Positions 12,472 to 61,405 of a stretch of 64,000 bases of DNA are shown here, in pieces. The stretch is from assembly GCA_016931255.1 (NCBI GenBank), contig JAFGFG010000001.1:30961-94960 (forward strand), given 5' to 3'. The DNA is from Candidatus Aenigmatarchaeota archaeon (GTDB taxonomy: Archaea; Aenigmatarchaeota; Aenigmatarchaeia; QMZP01; JAFGSV01). Numbering within the stretch: the stretch's first letter is position 1; each line of letters opens with the position of its first letter. Below the pieces are notes generated by a model. It saw nothing but the letters and a program-made list of their open reading frames with translations, had not been told where the DNA came from and searched no databases. The translations under genes and the position numbers were made by a program.

Positions 12472-12477
12472 TCTCAT

Positions 12478-13474: not shown

Positions 13475-13516
13475 CTACGCCATCCAGTTTAAAAAATTTA
13501 CTATATAAAATAATAG

Positions 13517-18446: not shown

Positions 18447-18480
18447 AATTTTTATATGTGACGGATATTTAAAATCTAAT

Positions 18481-20959: not shown

Positions 20960-21433
20960 CTAGCCGCTGATTTCTTCAAGCCTCTTGCGCCATTCGCCGA
21001 TTCTGCTGTTAGTCTTCCTGGAAGCGAAATCCATCAGCATGGAATTGAATCTTTCAGCCCGTCTGATAAGACTTTTCACTTCTTCCCTGGTAATTTCGAA
21101 ATCCACGTAATACTGCTTGTCAATCCGCTCGTTTTTGGCATATGAAATGTCTGAATTGTCAATACCGTAAACCTCTTTCAGTATTATTATGACTGCCGCA
21201 TGGTTCTCGCACTTTATGCCTGTCCCGAAAAGAATGGCGGATGCTGCATGATACATGCTGTAGTATGCCATGACTACCGACTCCTCGAGGTGTCCGCTTC
21301 TGAGGAGTATATTAGCTGATTCCGTGTTGCTTCCGGATTTTGCCAAGTACGACTTCATCACATTGTCGCTCGGCTCGACCATCTCGAGCTTCCCTTCCTT
21401 TTTCAGTTTACTTAAAAATCCGATTCTTCTCAT
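20960..21433 (-). CDS. HEPN-domain protein (toxin partner of MNT)
   Basis: 157 aa, helical and HEPN-like (LEESVVMAYYSMYHAASAILF...). It lies downstream of and overlapping the nucleotidyltransferase gene. Its stop abuts the integrase stop. Confidence 0.65.
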   Translation of the reverse strand: MRRIGFLSKLKKEGKLEMVEPSDNVMKSYLAKSGSNTESANILLRSGHLEESVVMAYYSMYHAASAILFGTGIKCENHAAVIIILKEVYGIDNSDISYAKNERIDKQYYVDFEITREEVKSLIRRAERFNSMLMDFASRKTNSRIGEWRKRLEEISG

Positions 21434-21980
21434 AGAATTCCTCTGTCCCCTTTATTATGACGTGGTTCTTTTCTATCTCCTGCATGAGCGGATTGCCTGG
21501 GTCATATCTTCCCATTTTGATGCTTACTCTGGAATCAGTCATTTCCAGGTCGCTCTTCAGTTTCCTGTCTGCCGATTCCATGTATATGTCTATATCGCTG
21601 TCTTTCTTGACAGTTCCTTTTGCATAGGAACCGAAAATGATGGACATCCCCGCTCTCTTGTCTTTCTGTATTGTTTCGACAATCTTCCTCAGATTGGGGT
21701 ATTTTTTCAGGGTCCGCATAAGTTTGTAGTTCTCAAGCATGAGAACGTAGGATCTGGTCTCGTTTGTCTCCTTGAGGAAATATACCTTGTTTTTTCCTTC
21801 TTCCCGGAAATCCACGACGTTCTCGTAAGAAAGCTCCTTCAGCTTTCTGGAAACAGTCATATGGTTTATGTTTGTCACTTTTGAAAGTCTCCTTACATGC
21901 ATCTCAGTCTTCGTAAGTTGTTCTATCAGTACCATCTTCTCGTTCTCATTAATGTAACTTTTTTGTTCCATGTGTAACAT
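21408..21980 (-). CDS. wHTH-fused minimal nucleotidyltransferase (MNT antitoxin-like)
   Basis: 190 aa with an N-terminal wHTH (RRLSKVTNINHMTVSRKLKEL). The NTase motif is GSYAKGTVKKDSDIDIY. Confidence 0.8.
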   Translation of the reverse strand: MLHMEQKSYINENEKMVLIEQLTKTEMHVRRLSKVTNINHMTVSRKLKELSYENVVDFREEGKNKVYFLKETNETRSYVLMLENYKLMRTLKKYPNLRKIVETIQKDKRAGMSIIFGSYAKGTVKKDSDIDIYMESADRKLKSDLEMTDSRVSIKMGRYDPGNPLMQEIEKNHVIIKGTEEFYEKNRIFK

Positions 21981-22008
21981 TTATGTTACAATGGTTTATA
22001 AATGTTTC

Positions 22009-27248: not shown

Positions 27249-28622
27249 ATGGATTTGAATATTGATGAATATAACAGGATTCTTGAGAAATACAGGACAA
27301 ACAAAGAGACCGCAGGAAAGGTCAGCCAGATTTTTTCCCAGGGCAATTCAGAACTTTCAGACTCCGAGTACGAGGCCATAGTGGCAGGGTTCATGCAGAA
27401 CAATGCTGTTGCAGGCATGTTCGAGCATGTTCCGGCTAACTCTCTCGGGCTTCCTGTGATGCCCAAGGACACGAAGTCACTGGCTGTGGCTATTCTGATT
27501 AAGAAGGGATTCGACATCGTCACGAAGGACAAGGACATAGCCGGGGAAGTTGCTGACTTCATAGCCAGGCATCCGCAGACAGGAGAGGTTATCGTATTCA
27601 AGTGCGGGCCTGCGATGGTCAGGAAGGTTCTCAGTTATCTTGAAAGACCGAATACATCGTTATGGATACTCGACCACAACAGCAGGCTTTTCACATTCAG
27701 AAGGGGACCGAACTGGGATTCATTCCTCGCGTTCCACAAAGGCGCTGAAAATCATGTTCCTAAACCGGCTGCAGGGCCTGAGGCAGTGTATGAAGAGGCT
27801 GCGGAAGTGACTGTGCAGGAAGATGCCAGGAACACGGAAATGCCACCGGAAGAAGAGATTTCCCCGAGGACGTATGATGAGCCTGCGCCTGAAAAAGTGC
27901 CGGAAGTCATCGTTTCAGACGCTGAAGACGAGCATGGCAACGAGCCGGAGAGCAGCGACGATGTGAAAGCTGAAGAGGGCACTGGTGAGGATGAAGTCGT
28001 GGATGATGCTAATGATGACAGCATAAGGGTGGAGAGTCCTGTGAATCCGGCTTTCATTGTCGGCAACAGGAAGCTTCCAAGGATACTGAAGGAAGACGAG
28101 GTTGCCGGGATGATAAGGATTTCAAGGACGCTGCCGAGGGACAACCTCCTTCTCCAGTGCATGTACTTCCTTGGAATGTCCAATGCGGAGATACAGAACC
28201 TCAAAGTAGAGGATATAGATTTTGTCAGCGGAAAGGTTAACATCTCGCAGGGAAAGAACAGGAGGGACAGGAAGCTACCCATACCTGAAGAGCTCATGCA
28301 GGATCTGAAGTCCTTCATAGGCGCAAGGCCTGACGGATTCCTGATACGCGGTCGCGACAAGAAGGGAAAGCGCATATCAGATCGTCACATAAGAAGGTTA
28401 GTCAAGGCATACGCCAAGGAAGCCGGGATAAAGGGATACGAAGAGATACATCCCCATACACTCAGGCACAGCTACGCATCGCACCTGCTTAATCAGGGCA
28501 CGCCCATAGAAACGGTTCAGGGCATACTGGGTCACGAGAGGCTTGAGACAACTGCAATCTACTCCCAGATAAGAAATACAGAGAAGCTCAGGGAACACGT
28601 TAACAGCGCTCTTGGAAACTAG
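27249..28622 (+). CDS. atypical tyrosine recombinase: novel N-terminal domain, acidic linker, catalytic domain
   Basis: 457 aa. The C-terminal HPHTLRHSYASHL and LGHERLETTAIYSQI are Xer/integrase motifs. Residues about 181-262 are Glu/Asp-rich. The GMSNAEI segment carries Ser where Arg-I is expected. Confidence 0.8.
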   Translation: MDLNIDEYNRILEKYRTNKETAGKVSQIFSQGNSELSDSEYEAIVAGFMQNNAVAGMFEHVPANSLGLPVMPKDTKSLAVAILIKKGFDIVTKDKDIAGEVADFIARHPQTGEVIVFKCGPAMVRKVLSYLERPNTSLWILDHNSRLFTFRRGPNWDSFLAFHKGAENHVPKPAAGPEAVYEEAAEVTVQEDARNTEMPPEEEISPRTYDEPAPEKVPEVIVSDAEDEHGNEPESSDDVKAEEGTGEDEVVDDANDDSIRVESPVNPAFIVGNRKLPRILKEDEVAGMIRISRTLPRDNLLLQCMYFLGMSNAEIQNLKVEDIDFVSGKVNISQGKNRRDRKLPIPEELMQDLKSFIGARPDGFLIRGRDKKGKRISDRHIRRLVKAYAKEAGIKGYEEIHPHTLRHSYASHLLNQGTPIETVQGILGHERLETTAIYSQIRNTEKLREHVNSALGN

Positions 28623-50282: not shown

Positions 50283-50675
50283 ATGAAATTCGACCTCACC
50301 GTCATTATCGTGATCGTGCTGGCAGCTGTGGTATTCGCTGTCCCCGCCGGACTTTACGCGATGGAACAGCTTAAGGACAAGACACCTGTGATAACAGACT
50401 ACTGCAACGCCAGGGGATTCCTTGAGGTATACCCGTGCATAGACGGCTCGTTTCAGGCAATAAGGGAATCCTATTCAGAGGGGTTCAGAATAGTAAATCC
50501 GGATGGCACGGGATTCGACTGCCCGTTCACTCTTCCGCAGTATCAGGTTGGCGAATGCGCAGAATACACCACAGTGGGCATGTGCGGCTACATGGGAGAC
50601 ATATGCGCGAATGACAATGCATGCGTGTCAGACCTTGACTGCGCAGGAGAATGCATGAACTGGACGTGCGGTTAG
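50283..50675 (+). CDS. membrane-anchored Cys-rich extracytoplasmic protein
   Basis: The start is MKFDLTVIIVIVLAAVVFAV and the mature part has 12 Cys. The upstream part of ORF 49653..50675 is antisense to mre11. Confidence 0.5.
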   Translation: MKFDLTVIIVIVLAAVVFAVPAGLYAMEQLKDKTPVITDYCNARGFLEVYPCIDGSFQAIRESYSEGFRIVNPDGTGFDCPFTLPQYQVGECAEYTTVGMCGYMGDICANDNACVSDLDCAGECMNWTCG

Positions 50676-51211
50676 TTTAGCTTGGACTCGCCTCTGTCAA
50701 GTGCTGATGCCATTTCCGGATTGGTATTGCCGTTTTCAGAATCCCGTATTTTTTTCCTGTATTCGTTTGGGTCGAATCCCCTCATTTTCTGGATGCCGGC
50801 GCAGACAGTCTCGAAAAGCTTTGCCCCGATTGAATGGTCGGCATTCGCTGAAGCGTCTTTTTCTTTGCATTCGACACCGAGATCGAATGCTTTTTTTTCG
50901 AAATCACCGATGTAAATACTCACCTTGCTTTCAAGTATCATGTTTTCATCATCAGTGCCGTTGAAATATGACTTGTCTTCTCCGTTCGTAAACGGTATCT
51001 GGAAGCGCCCGAAACCGAAATTCCTGATGAGCGTGTTGTCAAGCCCCTTTTTACCCAGCTCACGCATCCTGTCGTCACCGTTGAATTCCATGTCAATCGC
51101 GTTGTATGCGCGGAAGAATGACTCGACATATGAATTGATGTCAACATCTGAAAAAGTTGTGCTTCTGGGCATGCTGTATTTTCCCATAACAATTATATGT
51201 CCGAAAAACAT
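50672..51211 (-). CDS. hypothetical protein
   Basis: 179-aa ORF. Confidence 0.45.
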   Translation of the reverse strand: MFFGHIIVMGKYSMPRSTTFSDVDINSYVESFFRAYNAIDMEFNGDDRMRELGKKGLDNTLIRNFGFGRFQIPFTNGEDKSYFNGTDDENMILESKVSIYIGDFEKKAFDLGVECKEKDASANADHSIGAKLFETVCAGIQKMRGFDPNEYRKKIRDSENGNTNPEMASALDRGESKLN

Positions 51212-51274
51212 TTAAGGAGATATAAAGATGATTCTTGCGCTCAATGTTAAATTACTTTCTGTTAAAAAGATATC

Positions 51275-51781
51275 ATGAAGGCAAACATTGTCAACATGCA
51301 ATTCTATGCGCTCCTTTTCGCGGTGCCGCTCGTCATAGGCAACAGCATAAGCTCTGATATCAGGCAGAGGGACGCCGAGGAAACGGGAATACCTGATGCG
51401 CATGAGATTGCCTACCCGAAGCTCGATTCACATGCGGTGTCTCCTGAAGACATACCGAAACGATTCCACGGATATATTGAGCTGATGGATGTCGATTCAG
51501 ATGGTGACTTCGAAAGCTTCTACGTCTGGAAGAACCCAGACGGCCGCAATGTCAGGCTCCCTCTCATCAAGAACGGGAACAGCATGGCCTTTCCGACGGT
51601 TTCAAAGCGCTCGCTCACGCCAATCGAGATACCCAGAGGATTAGAGAAAAGCACGTATTTCATGGACATCGACATGGACGGGGACAATGACGCTGTCCTC
51701 ATTGAATACGGAAGCAACGGAGCTGTTGTATTTCCCCTTACAAAGAAGGGCGATGAGCCTCCTAGAACCTACATGATATGA
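51275..51781 (+). CDS. secreted protein with two DxDxDG calcium-binding-like motifs
   Basis: 168 aa with a signal-like N-terminus. It has DVDSDGDFE and DIDMDGDNDAV. Confidence 0.5.
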   Translation: MKANIVNMQFYALLFAVPLVIGNSISSDIRQRDAEETGIPDAHEIAYPKLDSHAVSPEDIPKRFHGYIELMDVDSDGDFESFYVWKNPDGRNVRLPLIKNGNSMAFPTVSKRSLTPIEIPRGLEKSTYFMDIDMDGDNDAVLIEYGSNGAVVFPLTKKGDEPPRTYMI

Positions 51782-51816
51782 TTTCTCAGTCCGCAATGCC
51801 TGAAAGCTTTTAAGGA

Positions 51817-51838
51817 ATAATGAACATATGTCCATTAT
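51817..51838. promoter_or_regulatory. 22-bp palindrome (1 mismatch) abutting the DUF134 start codon, candidate operator
   Basis: ATAATGAACAT|ATGTCCATTAT. It is near-identical to the site at 53542..53563. Confidence 0.5.
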
Positions 51839-52288
51839 ATGGCAAGACCCAAAAAAACGAGGATGATTCACAGCGAACCCGAGATAACATACTTCAAGCC
51901 GGCAAGGGTAGCCCTCAGGGACCTTCGCGAGAATTCCCTCACACTGGAAGAAATCGAGGCAGTCAGGCTGAAGGACCTCGACGGTCTCGACCAGGAGGAA
52001 TGCGCGAAAAGGATGAATGTCTCCAGAACAACGTTTCACAGGGTTCTCGGATTGTCAAGAAAGAAGATCGCTGATGCCCTTCTGAACGGAAAGGCTCTCA
52101 GGATAGGCGGAGGCGACTACATGCTCGGAAGGGGAGAGAAGGGCGGCAGGGGATTCGGTCCCGGAGGCGAATGCGTCTGCCCCGAATGCGGTCGGAAGGT
52201 TCCCCATGACAGGGGCATTCCTTGTTTCGAGTACAAATGTCCTGACTGCGGCACACAGATGACGAGGACTTCTCCGGATAAAGGATGA
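51839..52288 (+). CDS. DUF134 (UPF0251) DNA-binding protein with C-terminal zinc ribbon
   Basis: 149 aa with MARPKKTRMI...YFKP and LTLEEIEAVRLKDLDGLDQEECAKRMNVSRTTFHRVL (sigma-70 r4-like HTH). The zinc ribbon is CPECG...CPDCG. Confidence 0.8.
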   Translation: MARPKKTRMIHSEPEITYFKPARVALRDLRENSLTLEEIEAVRLKDLDGLDQEECAKRMNVSRTTFHRVLGLSRKKIADALLNGKALRIGGGDYMLGRGEKGGRGFGPGGECVCPECGRKVPHDRGIPCFEYKCPDCGTQMTRTSPDKG

Positions 52289-52716
52289 CAGCCATGAACA
52301 ATGAAGTGACTGATGCTTTCGGGAAGTCCGGAAAATCACTCTGCAACAGCCTTCCTGTACTTGCAGGGGCTGTGCTTCTCGTAGGACTCGCCAGCTCACT
52401 TGTGCCCCATACATTCTACAGCAGCATCTTCAGCCATAATCCGCTGATAGACTCCCTTATAGGAAGCACTGCAGGAAGTTTCCTTGCGGGAAATCCTCTG
52501 ACCAGCTATGTTCTCGGGGGCGAGATGCTCAGCCAGGGCGTAAGCCTTCTTGCAGTCACGTCTTTCCTTGTCGCGTGGGTTACGGTTGGGATGGTGCAGC
52601 TTCCTGCTGAATCCATACTTCTTGGACGGAGGTTTGCTGTCCTGAGGAACATTCTGAGCTTTGTGTTCTCCATCCTTGTTGCATTCACGACTGTTTACAT
52701 AACGGGGTTGTTATGA
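52285..52716 (+). CDS. predicted permease, first half
   Basis: 143 aa, polytopic, with an ATGA overlap upstream. It overlaps the next half-permease gene by 4 nt. Confidence 0.5.
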   Translation: MTAMNNEVTDAFGKSGKSLCNSLPVLAGAVLLVGLASSLVPHTFYSSIFSHNPLIDSLIGSTAGSFLAGNPLTSYVLGGEMLSQGVSLLAVTSFLVAWVTVGMVQLPAESILLGRRFAVLRNILSFVFSILVAFTTVYITGLL

Positions 52717-53219
52717 TGGGCGAAAACAGCCACAAAAGCGTGTATTTCCTTATTTCTGTTGTTGCACTTTATTTTCTGACAGCTGTATTCAGGTGGGATG
52801 CGGTTGTGCAATCTCTCGTCTTCTCCTATAACATCGCGCTCAATGTGATTCCTGTATTCGCAGCCATCTTCCTTATAATGGCCGGGTTCAATTACTTCAT
52901 ATCGCCGCAGAGCGTGAAGAAGCACATAGGGCGTTCATCAGGCATCAGGAGATGGGTTTTCGCTGTTGCCGGAGGCATAATATCCACAGGCCCGATTTAC
53001 ATGTGGTATCCAATGCTCAAGGACCTGAAGAAGCACGGGGTCAGCTACGGTTTCATCGCAGCATTCCTGTACAACAGGGCAGTCAAGATACCCCTCCTGC
53101 CTCTTATAATAGTCTATTTTGGCCTGAAATACACGATTGTGCTCACAGCCGTGATGATTGCAGCTTCCCTTGCGCAGGGCATCATTTTTGAAGCACTTGA
53201 AGGAGGTGAATTCATATGA
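52713..53219 (+). CDS. predicted permease, second half
   Basis: 168 aa, polytopic, and translationally coupled on both sides. Confidence 0.5.
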   Translation: MMGENSHKSVYFLISVVALYFLTAVFRWDAVVQSLVFSYNIALNVIPVFAAIFLIMAGFNYFISPQSVKKHIGRSSGIRRWVFAVAGGIISTGPIYMWYPMLKDLKKHGVSYGFIAAFLYNRAVKIPLLPLIIVYFGLKYTIVLTAVMIAASLAQGIIFEALEGGEFI

Positions 53220-53524
53220 TAAAAGCTGTCTGCTCAAAAGGAAAGGACATAACATCGGAAGTCAGCGAAGTCGGCGCAAGGGCTGCTTATTTCCTGATAT
53301 TCGACGACAAAAAGCTCGTCAATGCCATAAAGAACCCGTTCAGCTCAGGAGGTGGAGGTGCTGGTTACAGCGCTGCTGAGATGCTTTCTGACGAAGGGGT
53401 GAAGATGGTCATCAGCGGAAAAGTCGGACCGAATATGGTCACTGCGCTGAAGGACAAAGGCATGACGTACAGAGAGGTCCATGGAGTCAGTGCTGAAAAA
53501 GCTGCAGAAATACTATTAGACTGA
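53216..53524 (+). CDS. NifX/NifB-C-terminal-domain-like (dinitrogenase FeMo-cofactor-binding family) protein 1
   Basis: 102 aa with YFLIFDDKK...GGGGAGYSAAEMLSDEGVKMVISGKVGPNMVTALKDKG. Confidence 0.7.
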   Translation: MIKAVCSKGKDITSEVSEVGARAAYFLIFDDKKLVNAIKNPFSSGGGGAGYSAAEMLSDEGVKMVISGKVGPNMVTALKDKGMTYREVHGVSAEKAAEILLD

Positions 53525-53541
53525 TGGAAGTTTTATAAACT

Positions 53542-53563
53542 ATTATGAACATATGTTCATTAT
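53542..53563. promoter_or_regulatory. 22-bp palindrome (perfect 16-bp core), candidate operator copy 2
   Basis: ATTATGAACAT|ATGTTCATTAT lies 25 nt upstream of the DUF5320 ATG. It sits exactly at the G+C break. Confidence 0.5.
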
Positions 53564-53588
53564 GTTTAATGTAAAGGGGGTGTAAATT

Positions 53589-53912
53589 ATGCCAGGAGGA
53601 AATGGAACAGGTCCAGCAGGAATGGGCCGAATGACAGGAAGAGGAATGGGTTACTGCAATGGTTTTCAGGCTCCGGGATTCGCTAGTGCGGGTTTTGGAA
53701 GAGGCCGGGGAAACAGATTTTGGGCAAGAAACACAGGACTTCCGGGATGGCAAAGAGCCAATGATTACCAAGCATATCCCGTAGTACAGCCAACAAAAGA
53801 ACAGGAAATTCAGTACCTTGAAGAAGAAAAAGAAATGCTAAAACAGGAACTTGAGTCAATCAAGCAGAGTATAAAATCAATAGAAAGCAAAATGATGGAA
53901 ATCAAAAAATAA
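53589..53912 (+). CDS. DUF5320-like protein (Gly/Arg/Met-rich N-terminus plus coiled coil)
   Basis: 107 aa with MPGGNGTGPAGMGRMTGRGMGYCNG, then the coiled coil EQEIQYLEEEKEMLKQELESIKQSIKSIESK. Confidence 0.7.
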   Translation: MPGGNGTGPAGMGRMTGRGMGYCNGFQAPGFASAGFGRGRGNRFWARNTGLPGWQRANDYQAYPVVQPTKEQEIQYLEEEKEMLKQELESIKQSIKSIESKMMEIKK

Positions 53913-53929
53913 GAGAAAGGGGTAGTAAC

Positions 53930-54388
53930 ATGAAGATAGCAGTAAGTTCGACAGGTCAGGGACTAAAAAGCCAGTCAAGTCAGGTTTTCGGAAGATGTCC
54001 TTGGTTTGTCATAGTAGAAACCGACGGAAAGAAGATAATAGCTCATAAGGATGTTCAGAATAATGCAGCGATACAGGCTGCCGGTGCAGGAATAGCATCA
54101 GCGCAGTTAGTAGGAAATGAAGGTGCTACAGTCGTCATATCAGGCGCTGTTGGTCCCAGAGCATTCAGCGTTTTTCAGCAAGTCGGAATAGAAGCCTATC
54201 TGGGAACCGGAGGAACCGTTGAAGAGAATGTAATGCTTTTCATTAGCGGAAAACTTTCCAAAATAAACACTCCGGGAGTGATGGGCACAGGAATGGGAGG
54301 AGGCTTTAATTCTGGTACAGGCCGAGGCATGGGATTAGGCCGAGGCGGAGGATTTGGAGCAGGAAGAGGAATGGGGAGACGGCAATAA
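53930..54388 (+). CDS. NifX-like protein 2 with Gly/Arg/Met-rich C-terminal tail
   Basis: 152 aa with MKIAVSSTG...VFGRCPWFVIVE...GATVVISGAVGPRAFSVFQQVGIEAY. The tail is GTGMGGGFNSGTGRGMGLGRGGGFGAGRGMGRRQ. Confidence 0.8.
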   Translation: MKIAVSSTGQGLKSQSSQVFGRCPWFVIVETDGKKIIAHKDVQNNAAIQAAGAGIASAQLVGNEGATVVISGAVGPRAFSVFQQVGIEAYLGTGGTVEENVMLFISGKLSKINTPGVMGTGMGGGFNSGTGRGMGLGRGGGFGAGRGMGRRQ

Positions 54389-54413
54389 TCTGCATCCATA
54401 AGGATTGATATGA

Positions 54414-54743
54414 ATGAAAATTGCAATACCACTAGTAGAAAATAATGGAATAGAATCAAGGATACATCCGCATTTCGGTCACATCCAGTTCATAGGTGTT
54501 TACAATTCATCGGACAAAAAATTTGAGATAGTTGATGTAAAACCCACTGATGGATGTTCTCCTGTAGCAGCAATTGAAAATCTCAAGGTAGATGCCATAT
54601 ACACATTCGGTATGGGCAGCAGGGCTATCGAACTTTGCAAAAGAATGAAAATAAAACTCAAAACAGGCACATTCACAACAGTTAAAGAAGTCTCTGAAAA
54701 TCTCGATAAACTGAACGACCTTGAAGAAAGTTGCGGACACTGA
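54414..54743 (+). CDS. NifX-like protein 3
   Basis: 109 aa with MKIAIPLVEN...HFGHIQFIGVY...VDAIYTFGMGSRAIELCKRMKI. Confidence 0.65.
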   Translation: MKIAIPLVENNGIESRIHPHFGHIQFIGVYNSSDKKFEIVDVKPTDGCSPVAAIENLKVDAIYTFGMGSRAIELCKRMKIKLKTGTFTTVKEVSENLDKLNDLEESCGH

Positions 54744-54777
54744 AATTATCCATATACGGAAATGCAGTAAAATGTGT

Positions 54778-55611
54778 ATGAAGATAGTTGTAACAGGAGG
54801 TAAAGGTGGGACTGGAAAGTCAACTGTAGCCACTGCATTATCATCAGAGCTTTCAAGTAAAGGAAAGGTACTGCTCTTTGATGCGGATGTAGACTGCCCG
54901 AATGACCATCTCATACTTTCTACAAAAATAAAGAAAATAAAGACAGTGACTCAGGTCATTCCAAAATGGGATTTCAGCAAATGTGTGAAATGCGGTAGAT
55001 GTTCCGAAGTCTGCAAGACCAGTTCAATTGTTCAGATAAAGGAAAAGTATCCCATATTTGTTCCAGAACAGTGCAGCGGCTGTAAAGCTTGTATGATAGC
55101 GTGTCCGACCGGTGCCATAGGAAAAACACATAAAGACATAGGTGTAGTATACGAAGGCAAGAACGGTAATGTTGACATGATAAGCGGGGAACTCAAACCA
55201 GGTGAACCGGTCTCAGAATTTGTCGTCACTGCAGCAAAGGACATTGTAAATGAAAAAAGCAAAGATTATGACTTCATATTAACTGATACAGCCGCTGGTA
55301 CACATTGTGATGTCATAACAGCACTTCTTGATAACGACATTGCACTTGCAGTTACTGAGCCCACTCCACTAGGTGCCCATGATCTGGAACTAATACTGAA
55401 ACTCTCAAAAATACTTGAAGTACCTGTAAAGATAGTGCTCAACCGATCTGATATAGGTGACGCATCTCTTATTGAAGAAATAGCCGAGAAGTACGAGACT
55501 GAGATAATATCAAGAATACCTTACAGTAAAGCCATACTTGAGAGTTATTCGAATGGTGATGCCATAAAAAATATTCATATAGAAAAACTAGCCAGAGATG
55601 TGATGAGATGA
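54778..55611 (+). CDS. MinD/ParA-superfamily P-loop ATPase with inserted 2x[4Fe-4S] ferredoxin domain (1)
   Basis: It has MKIVVTGGKGGTGKST and DADVDCPN. The ferredoxin cysteines are CVKCGRCSEVC and CSGCKACMIACP. The ORF-track start is 54721. Confidence 0.85.
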   Translation: MKIVVTGGKGGTGKSTVATALSSELSSKGKVLLFDADVDCPNDHLILSTKIKKIKTVTQVIPKWDFSKCVKCGRCSEVCKTSSIVQIKEKYPIFVPEQCSGCKACMIACPTGAIGKTHKDIGVVYEGKNGNVDMISGELKPGEPVSEFVVTAAKDIVNEKSKDYDFILTDTAAGTHCDVITALLDNDIALAVTEPTPLGAHDLELILKLSKILEVPVKIVLNRSDIGDASLIEEIAEKYETEIISRIPYSKAILESYSNGDAIKNIHIEKLARDVMR

Positions 55612-56267
55612 AGATTACAGTAATTTATGATAACAATGCAAAAGACGGTCTTAAGTCCGGATGGGGATTTTCATGTCTGATAGAGAGTGACAAAAACATA
55701 CTTTTCGATTGTGGAGACAATGAGAAATCACTTCTTTATAACATTAAAAAGCTGGCGATTGACCTGAAAACAATTGACATGATTATATTATCCCATGAAC
55801 ACTGGGATCATACAGGAGGGCTGGCTGATATACTAAAATCAGCAGAAAATGTAACAGTGGTCCTTCCAAAATCATTTTCAGATGAAATGAAAGTTGCAAT
55901 AAGTAAACATGCAAAAATCATAGAAATTACTGAATGCCGGGAATTATCTGAAGATGTTTTCAGTATAGGTGAATTGAATGGTCACGGGCAGCCAAATGAA
56001 CAGGCACTGGCACTAAAAACTTCTAAAGGTGTTATGGTCATAACAGGGTGTGCTCATCCAGGGATTTCTGAAATACTCAAAGAGGCTGAAAAGCATGGAA
56101 AAATATACGGAATATTGGGTGGTTTTCACGACTTCTCTGATTTTGATGTGCTTGAAGGAATTGAACTTCTGGCACCATGCCACTGTACGAAACATCTCAA
56201 GGAAATACAGGATACTTATCCGGAAAATTACAGAAAAATCAATGCGGGGAGTGTGATTGAATTATGA
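55608..56267 (+). CDS. MBL-fold metallo-hydrolase
   Basis: 219 aa with SHEHWDHTGG (HxHxDH). There is a 4-nt overlap on both sides. Confidence 0.8.
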   Translation: MKITVIYDNNAKDGLKSGWGFSCLIESDKNILFDCGDNEKSLLYNIKKLAIDLKTIDMIILSHEHWDHTGGLADILKSAENVTVVLPKSFSDEMKVAISKHAKIIEITECRELSEDVFSIGELNGHGQPNEQALALKTSKGVMVITGCAHPGISEILKEAEKHGKIYGILGGFHDFSDFDVLEGIELLAPCHCTKHLKEIQDTYPENYRKINAGSVIEL

Positions 56268-57046
56268 AGACTGTTTATGGCCCCGTGCCTTCAAGAAGGC
56301 TTGGTATTTCACTTGGAATTGACCCAGTGTGTGCTACAAAAGGCAATCGTATTTGCAGCTTCGATTGCACATACTGCCAATTACATACAATGGGACCAGT
56401 CAGCCATACCACAATCAGAAAAGTATTCGTAAAAACAGAAGATGTGGAAAATGATTTGAAAGAAGCACTTAAACACACATCGCCGGATATCATAACAATA
56501 TCAGGAAGTTCTGAACCTACGCTTGCACTCAATCTGGGAGAAATCATAAAATCAGTAAAAATAATTACTGAGCTTCCTGTAGCGATTCTGACAAACTCTT
56601 CATTACTTTCGAAAGAGAATGTCCGGAAAGATTTGTACAAACTGGACCATGTAATTGCAAAACTCGACGCGTCTGAGTTCGATATTTTCAAAAAAATTAA
56701 CCGCCCTGCTGATGGAATAAGACTTGGGGAAATCATAAACTCGCTCAGATTATTCAGAAGTGAATATCAAGGTAAGATGTCGCTTCAGATGATGTTCATA
56801 GAAGATAATATTAGTCAGGCAAAGTCCCTGGCAGATCTTGCAGTAAGCATAAAACCAGACGAAGTGCAGATTGATACTCCACTGAGATATTCACCTGTTG
56901 CTCCTCTTCCAAAAGATACGCTCGATGAAATAAGACAAATTTTCACGAAAAGCGGTCTTAACGCAATTTCAATATATGATATGAAAAAGCCTGATACAAA
57001 GCCTGTAAACATGAAGGAAACATTATTGAGGAGACCGGAACTATGA
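56264..57046 (+). CDS. radical SAM protein (subfamily unknown)
   Basis: 260 aa with YGPVPSRRLGISLGI and CSFDCTYCQ (CxxxCxxC). Confidence 0.8.
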   Translation: MKTVYGPVPSRRLGISLGIDPVCATKGNRICSFDCTYCQLHTMGPVSHTTIRKVFVKTEDVENDLKEALKHTSPDIITISGSSEPTLALNLGEIIKSVKIITELPVAILTNSSLLSKENVRKDLYKLDHVIAKLDASEFDIFKKINRPADGIRLGEIINSLRLFRSEYQGKMSLQMMFIEDNISQAKSLADLAVSIKPDEVQIDTPLRYSPVAPLPKDTLDEIRQIFTKSGLNAISIYDMKKPDTKPVNMKETLLRRPEL

Positions 57047-57939
57047 AAAACATAACAATTGTTTCAGGTAAGGGCGGTGTTGGGAAATCGATGATTGCGT
57101 CTTCAATCTCAGTCATGCTTTCAAGAGAGATGAAGGTGGTAGTTGCAGATTGTGATGTCGATGCACCAGACCTTGGATTGAGTCTGGGGCTTAATGATAA
57201 TGATTATGAGTCATGGAATGAAATAACAACAAACGAGAAGGCTGTACTGGTCGATAAGAAATGCACCGGATGCAGAAAATGCGTGGATGTTTGTACGTTT
57301 GGTGCAATTAAATGGGATGAAAAAAGAAAGAAACCCGTATTCAATAGCTTGTTTTGTGAAGGATGCGGTTCATGTGAACTCGTTTGCCCGGAAAATGCAA
57401 TAGAATTAAAAGAAGTAAATAACGCTGTGATAGGCATCGGTAAGACAGCATACGGCTTTCCGATAATCACCGGCCAGCTGAAGATGGGTGAATCCGGTTC
57501 AGGAAAAGTAATATTCATCGTCAAGGAAACGGCAATGAAAATGGCTGAAAGAGAAAGAGCCGAGATAATGCTTACAGATGCAGCAGCCGGTATAGGATGT
57601 CCTGTAATAGCGTCAGTGAGGGGTTCTGATTATGTGATAGCTGTTACAGAGCCTACACCATCGGCACTAAGTGATGTTATCAGAATGCTTGACATAGTGA
57701 AGCATTTCGATATAGAGCATGGTCTTGTAATAAATAAATTTGACTTAAATCCGGAATTCAGTGAAAAAATAGAGAAATTTGCAAAAAGTATGGGTATTTC
57801 TGTATTAGGAAAGATTCCTTATGACAGGAAATTCGTGGATGCAATTGTCAACAGGAAGCCGGCAGTGATTTATGACAAGCAGTTTGAGAATGTATTCAAT
57901 GAAATAATTGACAATATGAAGAATGCAATCGGAATCTGA
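57043..57939 (+). CDS. MinD/ParA-superfamily P-loop ATPase with inserted 2x[4Fe-4S] ferredoxin domain (2)
   Basis: 298 aa with VSGKGGVGKS and DCDVDAPD. The ferredoxin cysteines are CTGCRKCVDVC and CEGCGSCELVCP. Confidence 0.85.
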   Translation: MKNITIVSGKGGVGKSMIASSISVMLSREMKVVVADCDVDAPDLGLSLGLNDNDYESWNEITTNEKAVLVDKKCTGCRKCVDVCTFGAIKWDEKRKKPVFNSLFCEGCGSCELVCPENAIELKEVNNAVIGIGKTAYGFPIITGQLKMGESGSGKVIFIVKETAMKMAERERAEIMLTDAAAGIGCPVIASVRGSDYVIAVTEPTPSALSDVIRMLDIVKHFDIEHGLVINKFDLNPEFSEKIEKFAKSMGISVLGKIPYDRKFVDAIVNRKPAVIYDKQFENVFNEIIDNMKNAIGI

Positions 57940-57960
57940 TGAAATGAATGCGGTGCAATC

Positions 57961-58467
57961 ATGGGAAATATTAAAATCAAGTGTAAAATATGTGGAAAAA
58001 TAATGTGCACAGATGATATCTACGTCGTGGACGGTGAAAACGTATGCAAGATGTGCATGCATGAAAACAAAAAACCTTTTATGATTTATCCAATAGGATA
58101 TGTTAAGAATGACTTGAAAAGGAAATCCGGTTCATTCGGAAACATCGGAAAAGAAAAAGTCTCACGAATAGAACTTTTTTCCTCGCAAATGCCTTTTATG
58201 TACATGATTAATGATGAAAAACATCTCACAATAGTATATTATTTGAACAAGAGAAATCCCATAAGATCGGTATTCAAAAGAGGGCTGGACGGAAAAGAAG
58301 TCGGCATCTTTGCCTCAAGAACCCCGGACAGGCCATCCGGAATTGCAATTCAGGAAGTCACGCTTTTGAAAGTCGACGGAACAACACTGTATGTTGAAGG
58401 GCTTGATGCAATCAACGACAGCCCGGTACTAGACATAAAGCTGGGACGCAAAAGCATAGACGGATAA
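57961..58467 (+). CDS. TrmO/YaeB(TsaA)-like domain protein with N-terminal zinc ribbon
   Basis: 168 aa with CKICG...CKMC, then IYPIGYVKN, ASRTPDRPSGIAI and SPVLDIK. Confidence 0.7.
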   Translation: MGNIKIKCKICGKIMCTDDIYVVDGENVCKMCMHENKKPFMIYPIGYVKNDLKRKSGSFGNIGKEKVSRIELFSSQMPFMYMINDEKHLTIVYYLNKRNPIRSVFKRGLDGKEVGIFASRTPDRPSGIAIQEVTLLKVDGTTLYVEGLDAINDSPVLDIKLGRKSIDG

Positions 58468-58926
58468 TTATCTGAAACATTTCATCATTTTCTTGTTTAC
58501 GGTAACATTGTTAGTCTTTCCTAAAGACTCCTTGGAAACCACATCTTTTCTTGAGAGTTTTTCAAGTATTCTGAAAACTTTAACTTTGGAAAGATTTGTC
58601 TCTCTTACTATCCGGGCTTGAGAAGCTTTACCTCCACTATTTATCAACATCTTCATAACCTTCATCTCGTCTGATTCAAATAAGGAGAGAAATACATTTC
58701 CATCTATATTCTCTTCATGGAATGGATTGAAAAAGTAGTATACCAGAGTTCCTATCAAAAGCCCGACCGAACCAAGGAATGGTATAAAAAGTGTTATGGG
58801 TATTAAACAACCGCATACATTTCCTGAATCTATCTGCATCTGGACATAAAATGAACTTATACCTATTATAAGAACGAACCCGGCTATCAGTATCATACCA
58901 ATAATGAATTTTTTCTGGTATTCCAT
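58468..58926 (-). CDS. membrane-tethered winged-helix regulator
   Basis: 152 aa with two N-terminal TM helices. The wHTH is MKVMKMLINSGGKASQARIVRETNLSKVKVFRILEKLSRKDVV. Confidence 0.6.
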   Translation of the reverse strand: MEYQKKFIIGMILIAGFVLIIGISSFYVQMQIDSGNVCGCLIPITLFIPFLGSVGLLIGTLVYYFFNPFHEENIDGNVFLSLFESDEMKVMKMLINSGGKASQARIVRETNLSKVKVFRILEKLSRKDVVSKESLGKTNNVTVNKKMMKCFR

Positions 58927-58930
58927 GATA

Positions 58931-58971
58931 ATGGTTTCATATTTTGAAACTTAAATTTATATATGGTTTCA
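58931..58971. promoter_or_regulatory. repeated ATGGTTTCA / TGAAAC half-sites in divergent intergenic region
   Basis: ATGGTTTCA occurs at 58931 and 58963, which is 32-bp spacing. An inverted TGAAAC lies at 58945..58950. The region separates the wHTH regulator from the thioredoxin-like lipoprotein gene. Confidence 0.3.
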
Positions 58972-58992
58972 ATCAACTATAATCTGATTTGA

Positions 58993-59379
58993 ATGAAAAA
59001 TCATGTCATCCTTGGAATTGGGATTATTATGCTCATAGTCAGTGGATGCACCACAAGCAATGGCGGAACTGAAGGCAATGTCATAGTGATTTCGGACGGC
59101 GGAACCGTGGACACTGCTATATGCCAGCAGAAGGGGATTGCAGACAAGATAGTTGTGTTCCATTCACCTACATGCCCTGCATGCAGGCAGACCCTGCCCG
59201 TGCTTGAGGAAATAGAAGCAGAATACGATTATGACTTCATGTTCATAGACCTTTCAACTGAAAGGGACGCGGCTGAGGAGCTGGGAATAATGCCCACGCA
59301 CATACCGACAATACTGATAAAGTGCAAGGCATACACGGGTTTCAGGGAAAAATCCGAATTCCTCAGCCTCATGGGGTGA
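58993..59379 (+). CDS. thioredoxin-fold lipoprotein (extracytoplasmic thiol-disulfide oxidoreductase)
   Basis: 128 aa with a lipobox-like LIVSGC. The CxxC active site is HSPTCPACRQ. Confidence 0.7.
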   Translation: MKNHVILGIGIIMLIVSGCTTSNGGTEGNVIVISDGGTVDTAICQQKGIADKIVVFHSPTCPACRQTLPVLEEIEAEYDYDFMFIDLSTERDAAEELGIMPTHIPTILIKCKAYTGFREKSEFLSLMG

Positions 59380-59383
59380 ATAT

Positions 59384-60085
59384 ATGATGTACGGCCTATC
59401 ACTGACAGCAATACTTTCGCTTGCCGCACTGGATGCCATAAACCCGTGCGCAATTGCAGTGCTGACACTCATGCTTATATCCATACTCACGTACAACCCA
59501 AAAAAAAGGAGAAACATCCTGCTTGCCGGAATGGCTTTCACCATGTCCGTATTCGTCATGTATATGTTCTACGGGCTTGTAATAATACGCTTCCTGCAGG
59601 TCATGAGCACAATAGCATACATAAGGGAAATGCTTTACGGCGTCCTCGGTGCATGTGCGGTTGTGCTGGGCATTCTGAACATCAAGGATTTCTTCTGGTA
59701 TAAGCCAGGAGGTTTGCTTACGGAGATGCCGATGAGGATGAGACCAACTGCGAAAAAAATAATAAACGGCATAACAACACCACGGGGAGCTTTTCTTGTG
59801 GGCGCGTTCGTGACTGTTTTTCTCCTTCCGTGCACCATAGGTCCGTACATAATAGCCGGTGGCATACTTTCCGCGCTTGAGCTCATGGCCGCTGTTCCAT
59901 GGCTTCTTCTGTACAACATCATATTTGTTCTGCCCATGATTGGGATAACGCTGGCTGTTTACGTAGGCGTCAGAAAGGTCGATGATGTCTCAGGATGGAA
60001 GGACAGGAACATCCGTCATCTCCACCTGATCTCAGGAATAATAATAATGCTGCTGGGCATCGGAATGCTTATGGGTTGGCTGTAA
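59384..60085 (+). CDS. CcdA/DsbD-family transmembrane thiol-disulfide electron transporter
   Basis: 233 aa, polytopic. Conserved membrane cysteines are LDAINPCAIAVL and LLPCTIGPY. Confidence 0.7.
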   Translation: MMYGLSLTAILSLAALDAINPCAIAVLTLMLISILTYNPKKRRNILLAGMAFTMSVFVMYMFYGLVIIRFLQVMSTIAYIREMLYGVLGACAVVLGILNIKDFFWYKPGGLLTEMPMRMRPTAKKIINGITTPRGAFLVGAFVTVFLLPCTIGPYIIAGGILSALELMAAVPWLLLYNIIFVLPMIGITLAVYVGVRKVDDVSGWKDRNIRHLHLISGIIIMLLGIGMLMGWL

Positions 60086-60118
60086 ACCAATTTAAGCACA
60101 TAAAATGCTATAATAGGT

Positions 60119-60859
60119 ATGTTTGAACTTATATACATATTAGCCGCAACCATGATAAACGGCCTTGTTGCCTTTGTGGGTGCATTCTCGCTTTTCGTGA
60201 AAGAGAAGTACCTCAAAAAAATACTGCTTCTGCTTGTGGCATTCTCAGCAGGGGCACTGCTTTCCGGAGGTCTGCTTCATCTTCTTGCGGAATCGCTGGA
60301 GTTTCTGGAAGCAGATACAGCGTTCCTGATAGCAATTTTCGGGTTCTCGATGTTCTTCGTGATTGAGAGGTTCCTTCACTGGCATCACTGCCATGAAGGC
60401 GTTTGCGACGTCCATTCATTCACATACATGATACTCATCGGAGACGGTGTGCATAATTTCATAGACGGGCTTGTCATAGCGGCAAGCTTCTTTGTGAGCA
60501 TTCCATTCGGCATTATGACGACAATACTCATAATAGGCCACGAAATTCCACAGGAACTTGGTGACTTCGGAGCGCTTGTTCACGGAGGCTTCGATAAGAG
60601 GAAGGCACTCCTCTTCAACTTCGGCTCGCAGCTGACAGCTGTTGCCGGCGGCATATTAGGATTCTTCCTTGGCGGGGAAGCGTGGTTCACGCCGTTGCTT
60701 CTTCCATTCGCAGCAGGCGGTTTCCTGTACATAGCCGCATCCGACCTCATACCTGAGTTGCACAAGGAAGCTGACATAAGGAAATCCATTGTATATTTCA
60801 TATTTTTCAGCATTGGAATAGCATTCATGGTTTCCATAAAGCTTCTGCTGGGCGGATGA
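60119..60859 (+). CDS. ZIP-family divalent metal (zinc) transporter
   Basis: 246 aa with HEIPQELGDF and a His-rich HWHHCHEGVCDVH loop. Confidence 0.8.
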   Translation: MFELIYILAATMINGLVAFVGAFSLFVKEKYLKKILLLLVAFSAGALLSGGLLHLLAESLEFLEADTAFLIAIFGFSMFFVIERFLHWHHCHEGVCDVHSFTYMILIGDGVHNFIDGLVIAASFFVSIPFGIMTTILIIGHEIPQELGDFGALVHGGFDKRKALLFNFGSQLTAVAGGILGFFLGGEAWFTPLLLPFAAGGFLYIAASDLIPELHKEADIRKSIVYFIFFSIGIAFMVSIKLLLGG

Positions 60860-60860
60860 G

Positions 60861-61037
60861 ATGGGAAAGGCCAGATGCCCGTTAATAGAATGCTGCCTGC
60901 TCAAGATACGATATGAGACCATGCCTAAAGGCGATGATGCCGTAAAAGCCCACTGCAACGGCAATTACAGAAAATGCGGCCGGTACCTGATGGAGAAAAT
61001 ATACGGAAGGATACCTGCAGAAAAGCCGAAAAAATAA
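60861..61037 (+). CDS. 58-aa Cys-rich small ORF
   Basis: MGKARCPLIECCLLKIRYETMPKGDDAVKAHCNGNYRKCGRYLMEKIYGRIPAEKPKK*. It starts 2 nt after the ZIP stop and has 5 Cys. It is below the ORF-track cut-off. Confidence 0.3.
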   Translation: MGKARCPLIECCLLKIRYETMPKGDDAVKAHCNGNYRKCGRYLMEKIYGRIPAEKPKK

Positions 61038-61078
61038 TATTAATAACCTGGTCACATATTGAACAGGTTGGTGATTTT

Positions 61079-61405
61079 ATGACTAAGATGGATGTAACAG
61101 ACAATGACTTTGACGAGAAGGTTGTTGAGCAGTCCAGGAAGATACCGGTGCTTGTTGATTTCTGGGCTTCATGGTGCGGACCATGCATGATGCTCGGGCC
61201 TGTTCTCGATAAAGTCGCCGATGACATGAACGGAAAGGTGATCCTTGCCAAGATGAATGTCGATGAAGGGCAGGAGAAGGCTGTCTTCTACAACATCAGC
61301 TCAATACCTGCTGTTAAGCTCTTCAAGGATGGCAGGGTTGTAGCTGAGTTCATTGGCGCAAGGCCGGAGTCTGCTGTGAAAGAATGGCTGGAAAGCAATA
61401 TCTGA
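61079..61405 (+). CDS. trxA: thioredoxin
   Basis: The start is taken at MTKMDVTDNDFDEKV. VLVDFWASWCGPC is present. Confidence 0.9.
   Translation: MTKMDVTDNDFDEKVVEQSRKIPVLVDFWASWCGPCMMLGPVLDKVADDMNGKVILAKMNVDEGQEKAVFYNISSIPAVKLFKDGRVVAEFIGARPESAVKEWLESNI

Follow-up and report, generated by a model that had tools for sequence, protein, structure and literature searches.

A conserved archaeal operon of NifX-like proteins, DUF5320 and MinD-ferredoxin ATPases that resembles the ORP and IssA systems and carries a candidate DUF134 operator

The storage and distribution of iron and sulfide in strict anaerobes are poorly understood, and the described systems closest to the locus considered here are the orange protein (ORP) complex and IssA. 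In Desulfovibrio vulgaris Hildenborough, the ORP complex is encoded by the clusters orp3-4-5 and orp7-8-9, in which the paralogues Orp3 and Orp4 are MinD-like and carry two ferredoxin motifs apiece, the NifX-like Orp8 is a homologue of the orange protein, which binds a Mo/Cu-sulfide cluster, and the Fe-S carrier Orp9 (MrpORP) joins an Mrp/NBP35 P-loop domain with CXXC to a NifX domain (PMC6345978, PMC8359166). Orp4 and Orp8 systematically co-purify with Orp3 (PMC6345978). The orp operons are expressed at low redox potential only, orp mutants have morphological defects, MrpORP has a polar localization, and a role in cell division has been proposed (PMC6345978, PMC8359166). ORP has been without a settled function since 2011, and IssA, the thioferrate iron-sulfur store of Pyrococcus furiosus (PMC5524996), is known from one organism. 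The IssA study also placed MTH1175 in the IssA clade and gave the name “IssX” to a mesophilic clade whose tails are rich in glycine (PMC5524996), and when M. voltae is grown on pyrite, IssA-clade proteins and nearby radical S-adenosylmethionine (SAM) proteins rise together (PMC9431491). Here, we describe a 12-gene operon in 64,000 nt of a Candidatus Aenigmatarchaeota archaeon (assembly GCA_016931255.1, contig JAFGFG010000001.1, 30,961–94,960 of the forward strand; this whole stretch is referred to as the window, and positions are given in it). This locus and its ~100 relatives join pieces of ORP, IssA, DUF134 and DUF5320 into one conserved module.

On balance, and with modest confidence, we regard the locus as an archaeal version of an ORP/IssA-type system that would hold, store and hand on inorganic Fe-S or other metal-sulfide material. 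An earlier note on this DNA, made from the letters alone, had treated the module as a system of unknown function; for its core that description no longer holds, because the core matches the architectures of the ORP complex and IssA. The only informative NCBIfam matches for the module were partial matches to MrpORP (g6, g7, g8 and g11), and MrpORP itself was not found in the window, the best score with its model NF041136 being 62.5 bits against a cut-off of 450. A deltaproteobacterial metagenome-assembled genome (L082; related loci are given by L numbers) has the full MrpORP equivalog at 515.8 bits against the same cut-off, and its gene comes directly after a pair of MinD-ferredoxin genes, one NifX gene and one short gene for DUF134, with a gene of the radical SAM family of g10 ~4 kb away. 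Because of this combination, the window module and the true orp clusters can be placed in one family of gene neighborhoods.

The 12 open reading frames (ORFs), g1 to g12, span 51839–58467 and all lie on the + strand; ATGA overlaps of 4 nt occur at 6 of the 11 gene junctions, the other gaps being 17–64 nt. The one-strand arrangement and the 4-nt overlaps at most junctions that the earlier note had reported were thus confirmed, as was each of its domain assignments by profile annotation. The start of g8 is the ATG at 54772 according to the gene caller, not the TTG at 54721. The genes, including those for helix-turn-helix (HTH) and metallo-β-lactamase (MBL) fold proteins, are:

g1, 51839–52288, + strand: DUF134 HTH protein with a Cys-rich C-terminus (Pfam DUF134 E 1.2e-24; Sigma70_r4_2 27.1 bits)
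g2, 52285–52716, + strand: N-terminal half of a split ArsP_1-type permease (PF03773 positions 13–134 of 294, 30.3 bits)
g3, 52713–53219, + strand: C-terminal permease half (PF03773 positions 186–293 of 294, 16.4 bits)
g4, 53216–53524, + strand: NifX-like 1, MTH1175/ORP type (Nitro_FeMo-Co E 8.2e-14)
g5, 53589–53912, + strand: DUF5320 (PF17253 E 1.4e-28)
g6, 53930–54388, + strand: NifX-like 2 with a cationic tail (Nitro_FeMo-Co E 3.3e-20)
g7, 54414–54743, + strand: NifX-like 3, PH0822/TM1816 type (Nitro_FeMo-Co E 1.1e-10)
g8, 54772–55611, + strand: MinD-type P-loop ATPase with a 2x[4Fe-4S] insert (CbiA, ParA and Fer4 matches)
g9, 55608–56267, + strand: MBL-fold metallohydrolase, TM1679/COG1237 type, HxHxDH (Lactamase_B E 3.9e-11)
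g10, 56264–57046, + strand: radical SAM protein, 260 residues, CX3CX2C (Radical_SAM profile)
g11, 57043–57939, + strand: second MinD-ferredoxin ATPase (CbiA/ParA and two Fer4 motifs)
g12, 57961–58467, + strand: CxxC...CxxC zinc ribbon fused to TrmO_N (TrmO_N E 6.2e-19)

Conservation of this gene set was analyzed in two collections. One was anchored on the radical SAM gene and comprised 80 loci from a collection with one genome per species, annotated with profiles made from the window proteins; 25 of these loci, each from its own genome, were well flanked (at least 6 kb on either side of the radical SAM gene). The other was an independent metagenome sample of 27 contigs of at least 6 kb anchored on DUF134. 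Families of the module adjoin radical SAM homologues in 64 of the 80 species-level genomes, so the possibility, considered in the earlier note, that the genes do not travel together elsewhere can be set aside. The carriers of the radical SAM-anchored loci are both archaeal (Aenigmatarchaeota, Micrarchaeota, Iainarchaeota, Thermoplasmatota, Halobacteriota and Methanophagales) and bacterial (Dehalococcoidia, Omnitrophota, Planctomycetia and Deltaproteobacteria, among others). In the 25 well-flanked loci, the proposed set of metallocluster-handling domains was recovered together, with MinD-ferredoxin ATPases in 21, NifX in 20, DUF134 in 19, DUF5320 in 14, MBL in 14, thioredoxin in 13 and TrmO in 8, as well as the flanking families SfLAP in 5 and ZIP in 2, and nearly all neighbor genes share the strand of the radical SAM gene. 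Pfam-annotated neighborhoods from a second resource gave the same picture. On the 27 DUF134-anchored contigs, the counts were NifX 22, MinD-ferredoxin 15, DUF5320 14, radical SAM 6, MBL 5 and TrmO 2. The module is therefore a real conserved operon and not a chance arrangement. Its core consists of DUF134, one or more NifX-like proteins, DUF5320 and two MinD-ferredoxin ATPases, and an accessory set that is often present is formed by the genes for the radical SAM, MBL and TrmO-like proteins; the radical SAM gene is classed as accessory because only 6 of the 27 DUF134-anchored loci carry it. The gene content, co-conservation and homologies, together with the fusions, the link between operator and DUF134 and the pairing of transporters with NifX that are described below, are shown directly here.

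The three NifX-like proteins differ from each other. The best match of g4 in the PDB is MTH1175 (E 8e-14), with the ORP structure 2wfb at E 8.6e-5, and g4 is joined to g3 by an ATGA overlap, by which it is predicted to be translationally coupled to the permease halves. The similarity of g6 to MTH1175, its nearest relative of solved structure, is stronger (E 1.5e-26, ~50% identity), and this protein is much nearer to MTH1175 than to the D. gigas ORP (2wfb, E 6.2e-12). The tail of g6 (residues 113–152, 40 amino acids) has a pI (isoelectric point) of 12.0 and is 45% Gly and 12.5% Arg+Lys with zero acidic residues; it has 5% aromatics, no Pro-rich part and no Cys. Of the 95 related loci with a NifX gene, 34 encode a NifX paralogue that bears a tail of this (GMGR)n type, as counted by a window scan for Gly/Arg. 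The third protein, g7, has the motif HFGH and, at its C-terminus, CGH; in the PDB, it matches PH0822 best (E 4.7e-7), and it partly matches MrpORP's Di-Nase domain.

DUF5320 proteins have an N-terminal MPGGDGTGPxGxGPMTGRGxGxC motif, a low-complexity stretch of Gly, Arg and aromatic residues and a coiled-coil-like C-terminal segment, and the family member of the window, g5, has a cationic N-terminal half, 12% aromatics and one Cys. When 8 NifX proteins of 190–209 residues, from bacteria and archaea, were tested with Pfam, 7 had Nitro_FeMo-Co and, after it on the same chain, DUF5320, and 6 of the 7 fusions are above the gathering cut-off. Based on these fusions, DUF5320 is best described as a predicted detachable tail of NifX-type carriers, and it may supply part of the function of an IssA-type tail in trans. 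Our literature search, in a searchable library, found no account of the relationship between DUF5320 and NifX, of the operator described below or of the extended module.

The two ATPases, g8 and g11, are 30% identical. Their family conserves GKGGxGK and eight ferredoxin Cys, and g8 has the deviant Walker A sequence GKGGTGKS. Among the immediate neighbors of the radical SAM gene, MinD-ferredoxin ATPases are the commonest. By sequence, the nearest solved structures of the P-loop domains are archaeal and bacterial MinD/FlhG; membership of g8 and g11 in the cell-division ATPase family MinD was considered and rejected, the TIGR01969 scores being 57–68 bits against a cut-off of 201.75. In addition, a Cys three residues past the glycine of switch II is invariant (D179..G183..C186 in g11), and a DCDV motif is frequent after Walker A' in the family. 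The C186-type position recalls that of the cluster ligand in NifH-type dimers, and together with DCDV it may make up a site for a metal or cluster between the subunits, besides the ferredoxin clusters.

The palindrome TGAAYATATRTTCA lies just 3' of the TATA boxes that precede the DUF134 and DUF5320 genes. Its two sites are:

O1, 51820–51835: operator-like palindrome ATGAACATATGTCCAT, 3 nt 5' of the g1 start codon
O2, 53545–53560: operator-like perfect palindrome ATGAACATATGTTCAT, 28 nt 5' of the g5 start codon

A TATA-like sequence, TTTTAAGG, at 51806–51813 is immediately 5' of O1, and a TATA box, TTTTATAAA, at 53531–53539 is immediately 5' of O2. There are exactly two copies of ATGAACATATGTYCAT in the window, and O1 and O2 are the sole matches in the 64 kb when up to 3 mismatches are allowed. 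A strict operator pattern, TG[AG]A[CT]ATAT[GA]T[TC]CA, had 17 exact matches in 1.11 Mb of non-redundant radical SAM-anchored loci. All 17 fell between −20 and +150 nt relative to where a module gene starts, a zone that makes up 9.6% of the sequence, and the genes beside them were DUF134 (9), DUF5320 (5), MinD-type (2) and NifX (1). The DUF134-anchored contigs (0.53 Mb) held 21 further copies, for a total of 38 in 1.6 Mb. The chance expectation from base composition is ~0.16 copies overall, and 30 block shuffles gave 0–1. The operator was confined to DUF134-encoding loci (12 of 44, compared to 0 of 39 without DUF134; Fisher p 2.6e-4), and the taxa in which it occurs are archaea, Dehalococcoidia, Deltaproteobacteria and Omnitrophota. 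In many related loci (L091, L099, L101, L107, L139, L143 and L155), a second, weaker copy of the palindrome is present upstream of DUF5320 ~9 nt after the first, e.g., TGAATATATATTCA-atataagat-ATGAATAAATATTCA, and such paired palindromes suggest tandem operators.

The DUF134 HTH resembles sigma-70 region 4. The C-terminus of g1 has the pattern CxCPxCG...H...PC...CPxCG, a Cys motif common to L001, L009, L015 and L070, and this Cys-rich C-terminus could bind a metal or cluster. In a Chloroflexia genome, the Cys-rich domain (GPGGxCxCPxCG...H..G.PC....CPxCG) is a separate ORF (L063:3388–3732); because of this stand-alone ORF, it is an independent module. The operator lies 3' of the TATA box, as would suit a site for repression, and we infer that the module is under autoregulation by DUF134 at two promoters, one for g1–g4 and one for g5–g12. 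A sequence search of DUF134 against the PDB gave no matches, and our literature search found no paper on the function of DUF134, DUF5320 or COG1149.

Transporters recur in the module next to NifX. Jointly, g2 and g3 cover positions 13–293 of the 294 of the ArsP_1 profile, each of them scoring below the 32.3-bit cut-off, and the same split permease, always followed by a NifX-like gene, recurs in five loci, including L009, L010, L095 and L101. In many other loci, archaeal and bacterial, a cation diffusion facilitator (CDF) transporter is fused to a NifX domain (e.g., L001:9923–11185, L004:2867–4150 and L033:12638–13915), and the best partial equivalogs of these fusions are the iron CDFs MamB, MamM and FieF. 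The neighbors in the 80 radical SAM loci include a class I methyltransferase (29), a flavoprotein resembling CoA-disulfide/persulfide reductase (27), an IscU-like NifU_N protein (27), an ARMT1-like phosphatase (19), TrmO (19), a J-domain protein (15), Fur (11), FeoB (7) and EncFtn (4). VIT1 was found beside a radical SAM homologue on a separate JGI contig (L007). The recurrent families of the radical SAM loci included neither a molybdate/tungstate transporter nor genes for molybdopterin, and a NifDK/NifEN-like client was found neither in the window nor among the recurrent neighbors of these 80 loci, in line with the earlier remark that the window has no nitrogenase or other obvious client.

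The genes that follow the operon belong to the same metal and thiol context:

flanking context, 58468–61405: DUF7343 HTH (− strand), thioredoxin-like, SfLAP/DsbD-like, ZIP, thioredoxin

The earlier note had named adjacent ZIP, CcdA and thioredoxin genes. ZIP (E 1.6e-40) and two thioredoxin-fold genes are indeed present, but CcdA is supported at the superfamily level only, the DsbD_2 match of the SfLAP/DsbD-like membrane protein (E 0.0016) being below the cut-off. The metal and thiol context as such recurs in the radical SAM-anchored loci in the form of thioredoxin, ZIP, CDF-NifX, FeoAB, Fur, NifU_N and EncFtn. The DUF7343 winged-HTH protein, on the − strand, has two N-terminal transmembrane helices, and its gene abuts the g12 stop. 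The thioredoxin-like protein that comes next has a lipoprotein-like leader (..LIVSGC..) and is followed by the SfLAP/DsbD-like membrane protein (58468–60085 for this stretch), and a cytoplasmic thioredoxin is encoded at 60974–61405. The loci L010, L011 and L101 likewise have DUF7343 along with SfLAP. Taken together, these genes resemble a pathway for CcdA-type export of reducing power.

The radical SAM protein, g10, is a small enzyme of the single-cluster kind, has the N-terminus YGPVPSRRLGxSLGIDP and belongs to an unnamed family, with 354 homologues at E <= 1e-30 among 1.84 billion representatives. In an alignment of 20 homologues, C31, C35 and C38 are the only invariant Cys. No NCBIfam model came near its cut-off and no NifB model matched at E <= 1e-3, the weak top match being the tungsten-cofactor oxidoreductase maturase (35 bits against 380), and the search against the PDB gave no matches. 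The predicted model (predicted local distance difference test, pLDDT, 94) matched generic cores only, namely viperin, the pyruvate formate-lyase activating enzyme (PFL-AE), TYW1, NifB and DesII (template modeling (TM) scores 0.6–0.67, 13–20% identity), with NifB, at TM ~0.64, no better than viperin, PFL-AE or TYW1. Because these fold matches are generic, g10 was not assigned to a specific family. The JGI label for the family is COG0731 (“wyosine synthetase”), and identity with TYW1 was rejected based on a TIGR03972 score of 22.7 bits against 317.95. A role in anti-phage defense, such as that of viperin, was also rejected, as the matches (pVip 34 bits in PADLOC; viperin_w_prok 31 bits against 180) are at the superfamily level only. 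Natural fusions in the family are NifX+radical SAM+winged HTH (P0425), radical SAM+class I methyltransferase (P0368), radical SAM+2x[4Fe-4S] ferredoxin (P0395) and radical SAM+winged HTH (P0416), and these architectures support a functional link between the radical SAM protein and both NifX carriers and methyl transfer.

For the other accessory proteins, the best PDB matches were 7dck (E 3.4e-34) and TM1679 (E 9e-20) for g9 and AF_0241 (2nv4, E 2.3e-13) for g12. The TrmO_N domain (PF01980) of g12 scored 68.8 bits against a cut-off of 26.8; assignment as the TrmO/TsaA equivalog was rejected (TIGR00104 64.4 bits against 93.25), TrmO_N alone being detected. The zinc ribbon-TrmO_N architecture is conserved in many bacteria, pairs of radical SAM and TrmO genes stand alone in some genomes (L005 of Petrotogales, L031 and L038 of Thermoplasmatota, and L040), and TrmO-like homologues are also found in unrelated gene contexts.

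Comparison with L009, the collinear locus of a sister genome, revealed a local change in the middle of the accessory genes. DNA identity is 91–98% over g1–g7 and ~95% over g12, and drops to 58–73% over 55400–57300, which comprises the 3' end of g8, the MBL and radical SAM genes and the 5' end of g11. The protein identities are 84, 59, 67 and 79% for g8, MBL, radical SAM and g11, compared to 95–100% for the flanking genes, and the GC content falls from ~0.48 to 0.35–0.42 over 54400–59200. The drop in identity to L009 and the drop in GC suggest that the MBL-radical SAM cassette has been replaced by recombination, independently of the remaining operon.

We hypothesize that the module works as an ORP/IssA-type system in the following manner, in which what the ligand is, which way transport runs, how ATP and electrons take part and what the radical SAM protein acts on are inferred. 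DUF134 would bind the palindrome TTA-TGAAYATATRTTCA-TAA overlapping the start sites of the two promoters (g1–g4 and g5–g12), repress both and release them upon a signal sensed by its Cys-rich C-terminus. A membrane transporter, which is the split ArsP-type permease here and CDF-NifX in many relatives, would bring in or remove metal, and its substrate is presumed to be Fe(II) because the CDF domains are MamB/FieF-like and the neighbors include Fur, FeoAB and IscU. The three NifX-like proteins would hold anionic Fe-S species non-covalently, and the cationic g6 tail and DUF5320 would neutralize and organize these species, as has been proposed for IssA and thioferrate; it is the tail architecture and the NifX-DUF5320 fusions that point to such a storage step. 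The ATPases g8 and g11 would form an ATP-dependent heterodimer with 2x[4Fe-4S] per subunit that docks on the NifX proteins, by analogy with the co-purification of Orp3-Orp4-Orp8, and may couple ATP and low-potential electrons to cluster loading or to reductive release to apo-proteins. The radical SAM, MBL and zinc ribbon-TrmO proteins would act, in a step that depends on SAM, on the species bound by NifX or on its carrier proteins.

Several observations weigh against this scheme. The ORP complex that serves as its model has no settled function, with cell division being the role proposed (PMC6345978), and the cluster in ORP itself is of the Mo/Cu-sulfide type and not Fe-S. Within the module, there is no Mrp/NBP35-type carrier (MrpORP), IscU or SufBC gene. 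The tail of IssA is 70 residues long compared to 40 in g6, whose tail is aromatic-poor and without a Pro-rich segment or Cys, and g6 is likened to IssA by architecture and by the MTH1175 match, not by a tree. Of the loci with DUF134, only about one in four has the strict operator pattern. Lastly, the radical SAM, MBL and TrmO genes are also found without the core (e.g., L005, L031, L038 and L171), and because of these occurrences their role may be separate from it.

This last point leads to an alternative in which one operon serves two functions that share regulation only, the radical SAM, TrmO-like and MBL proteins (with the methyltransferase and ARMT1-like phosphatase of relatives) performing a separate SAM-dependent modification of RNA, of a small molecule or of the Arg/Gly tails. 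We consider it unlikely. The stand-alone radical SAM-TrmO pairs (L005, L031, L038 and L040), the TrmO-like homologues in unrelated contexts, the COG0731 label, the fact that TrmO is a tRNA methyltransferase family and the exchange of the MBL-radical SAM cassette independently of the rest of the operon would all suit it, but the TYW1 score (22.7 bits against 318) and the TsaA score (64.4 against 93.25, with no TrmO C-terminal domain) do not, the radical SAM gene adjoins MinD-type ATPases far above chance (21 of 25 loci), and P0425 is a direct NifX-radical SAM fusion. That same fusion and the radical SAM-methyltransferase fusion favor a NifB-like pathway in separate proteins, which we likewise hold to be improbable. 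Here, the radical SAM protein and a SAM-binding protein of methyltransferase fold (TrmO-like or a class I methyltransferase, found in 19 and 29 of the 80 loci, respectively) would modify or fuse clusters held by NifX, e.g., by insertion of a carbide-type or other ligand, for a client encoded elsewhere. The location of g10 between two MinD-ferredoxin genes with ATGA overlaps, the presence of NifB among the fold matches (TM ~0.64) and the joint rise of IssA-clade and nearby radical SAM proteins in M. voltae on pyrite (PMC9431491) are compatible with such a pathway. Against it, only the three canonical Cys are invariant, which leaves no ligands for K1/K2-type clusters; there is no NifB model match at E <= 1e-3, the best NCBIfam matches being weak and generic; viperin, PFL-AE, TYW1 and DesII match the fold equally well or better; the radical SAM gene is accessory (6 of 27 DUF134-anchored loci); and no NifDK/NifEN-like client was seen in the window or among recurrent neighbors. 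The idea in the earlier note of a NifB split into separate genes is thus weakly supported: a natural NifX-radical SAM fusion does exist in the family, but the Cys pattern, the models and the generic fold do not point to NifB. In its furthest extension, which we think rather doubtful, the accessory radical SAM protein, a partner of methyltransferase fold and the ferredoxin-ATPases would remodel Fe-S species on stand-alone NifX carriers as a NifB-like pathway in trans outside nitrogen fixation, widespread in anaerobes, including reduced DPANN genomes, and switched by DUF134 as a metal- or redox-sensing repressor.

Two further readings are less well supported than these. If the NifX-like proteins carry heterometallic sulfide clusters such as the [S2MoS2CuS2MoS2]3- of Desulfovibrio ORP, and the transporters move the metals, the module could serve in the buffering or detoxification of thiometallates (Mo/W/Cu-sulfide). 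The homology of g4 and g6 to ORP (2wfb), the ZIP, CDF and ArsP-type transporters in or near the module and the weak top radical SAM match to the tungsten-cofactor maturase (35 bits against 380) agree with this, but the recurrent neighbors are iron-specific (Fur, FeoAB, IscU-like, EncFtn and MamB/FieF-like CDF, with VIT1 in one more neighborhood), molybdate/tungstate transporters and molybdopterin genes are absent from the recurrent families, and g6 is far closer to MTH1175 than to ORP, so that we give thiometallate handling little credence. It is very improbable that the ATPases act in MinD/ParA-like positioning of the division apparatus or another structure, with their Fe-S domains as redox sensors. 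Although MinD/FlhG are the closest solved structures to the P-loop domains, and the orp mutants have morphological defects and MrpORP is polar (PMC6345978, PMC8359166), the MinD models reach 68 bits against 201.75, there are no division genes in the module or among recurrent neighbors, and the conserved partners are metal carriers and transporters.

The remainder of the window is largely archaeal housekeeping (proteasome, exosome, SBDS, SepF, SRP54, Rad50/Mre11, PyrBI and PurD) plus an integrase/HEPN island. This low-GC island (0.37–0.42, at ~16000–22000) has a MethyltransfD12 DNA methyltransferase, a phage-type integrase and a HEPN/nucleotidyltransferase pair and is probably an integrated mobile element; another integrase is at 27249–28622. 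A second radical SAM gene (Radical_SAM and SPASM, 365 amino acids) is in a cassette at 11374–15163, where three small ORFs precede it and an acetyltransferase and a PmbA/TldD-type protein follow, an arrangement that looks like peptide maturation. Directly upstream of the operon, at 50672–51781, are two genes without an assigned function, for a 179-amino-acid protein (− strand) of no family and a 168-amino-acid protein (+ strand) with a weak FG-GAP-like match; they are kept only in the sister genome, at 72–76% identity, and are far more diverged than the adjoining module. The best named matches of the proteasome alpha subunit are from Candidatus Aenigmatarchaeota, which makes a DPANN archaeon the probable host. 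A whole-window Rfam scan gave no matches, and scans for sigma-70 promoters and intrinsic terminators are uninformative here, the host being archaeal.

The core of the module matches two systems that have been studied in part, ORP and IssA, and the regulator site and the radical SAM accessory genes are undescribed in the literature that we searched. New here are the candidate DUF134 operator of 14–20 bp, DUF5320 as a candidate detachable NifX tail, the pairing of transporters with NifX, and a radical SAM family with fusions to NifX and methyltransferase. That the module has been kept in a DPANN archaeon whose genome is probably reduced suggests that it is of importance and not an ornament.

Compared to the known systems, the likeness of the accessory genes to nitrogenase assembly and to TrmO is partial. 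The module shares with NifB, NifX and NafY the NifX carrier fold, a radical SAM protein that is linked to it in the genome and fused to NifX in one relative, and Fe-S ATPases of the SIMIBI class. It differs in that g10 is without ligands for auxiliary K1/K2 clusters and without specific similarity to NifB, and in that its ATPases are MinD-like with an inserted ferredoxin, not NifH-like, and have no NifEN/NifDK scaffold or client. With TrmO, g12 has in common the SAM-binding barrel of TrmO_N, but it lacks the C-terminal domain, has an N-terminal zinc ribbon and keeps company with a radical SAM protein and Fe-S ATPases.

The likeness to IssA is in g6, where a globular domain of NifX type (IPR003731/PF02579) is followed by a cationic, glycine-rich and probably disordered tail that corresponds to the IssA tail in part, and in the similar chemistry of DUF5320 (Gly, Arg, aromatics and one Cys). 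IssA has been described as a single SurR/sulfur-responsive gene, whereas the locus in the window is a 12-gene operon. With regard to ORP, g8 and g11 correspond to Orp3 and Orp4 by domain architecture, not by alignment to DVU2103/2104, the single-domain NifX-like Orp8/ORP correspond to g4 and g6, and both systems are restricted to anaerobes. There are three NifX paralogues in the window and one in ORP, and the DUF5320 protein, the split permease and the radical SAM/MBL/TrmO set have not been described for ORP, the window module in turn being without the Mrp/NBP35-NifX fusion (Orp9). Regulation differs as well: the orp clusters are controlled by sigma-54 and OrpR, an activator with an Fe-S PAS domain, whereas the window has DUF134 with a palindrome after the TATA boxes and no enhancer-binding protein in or near the module. 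Because it is without MrpORP and OrpR, the locus falls outside the definition of the Desulfovibrio orp cluster; its predicted manner of working is that of the ORP and IssA systems.

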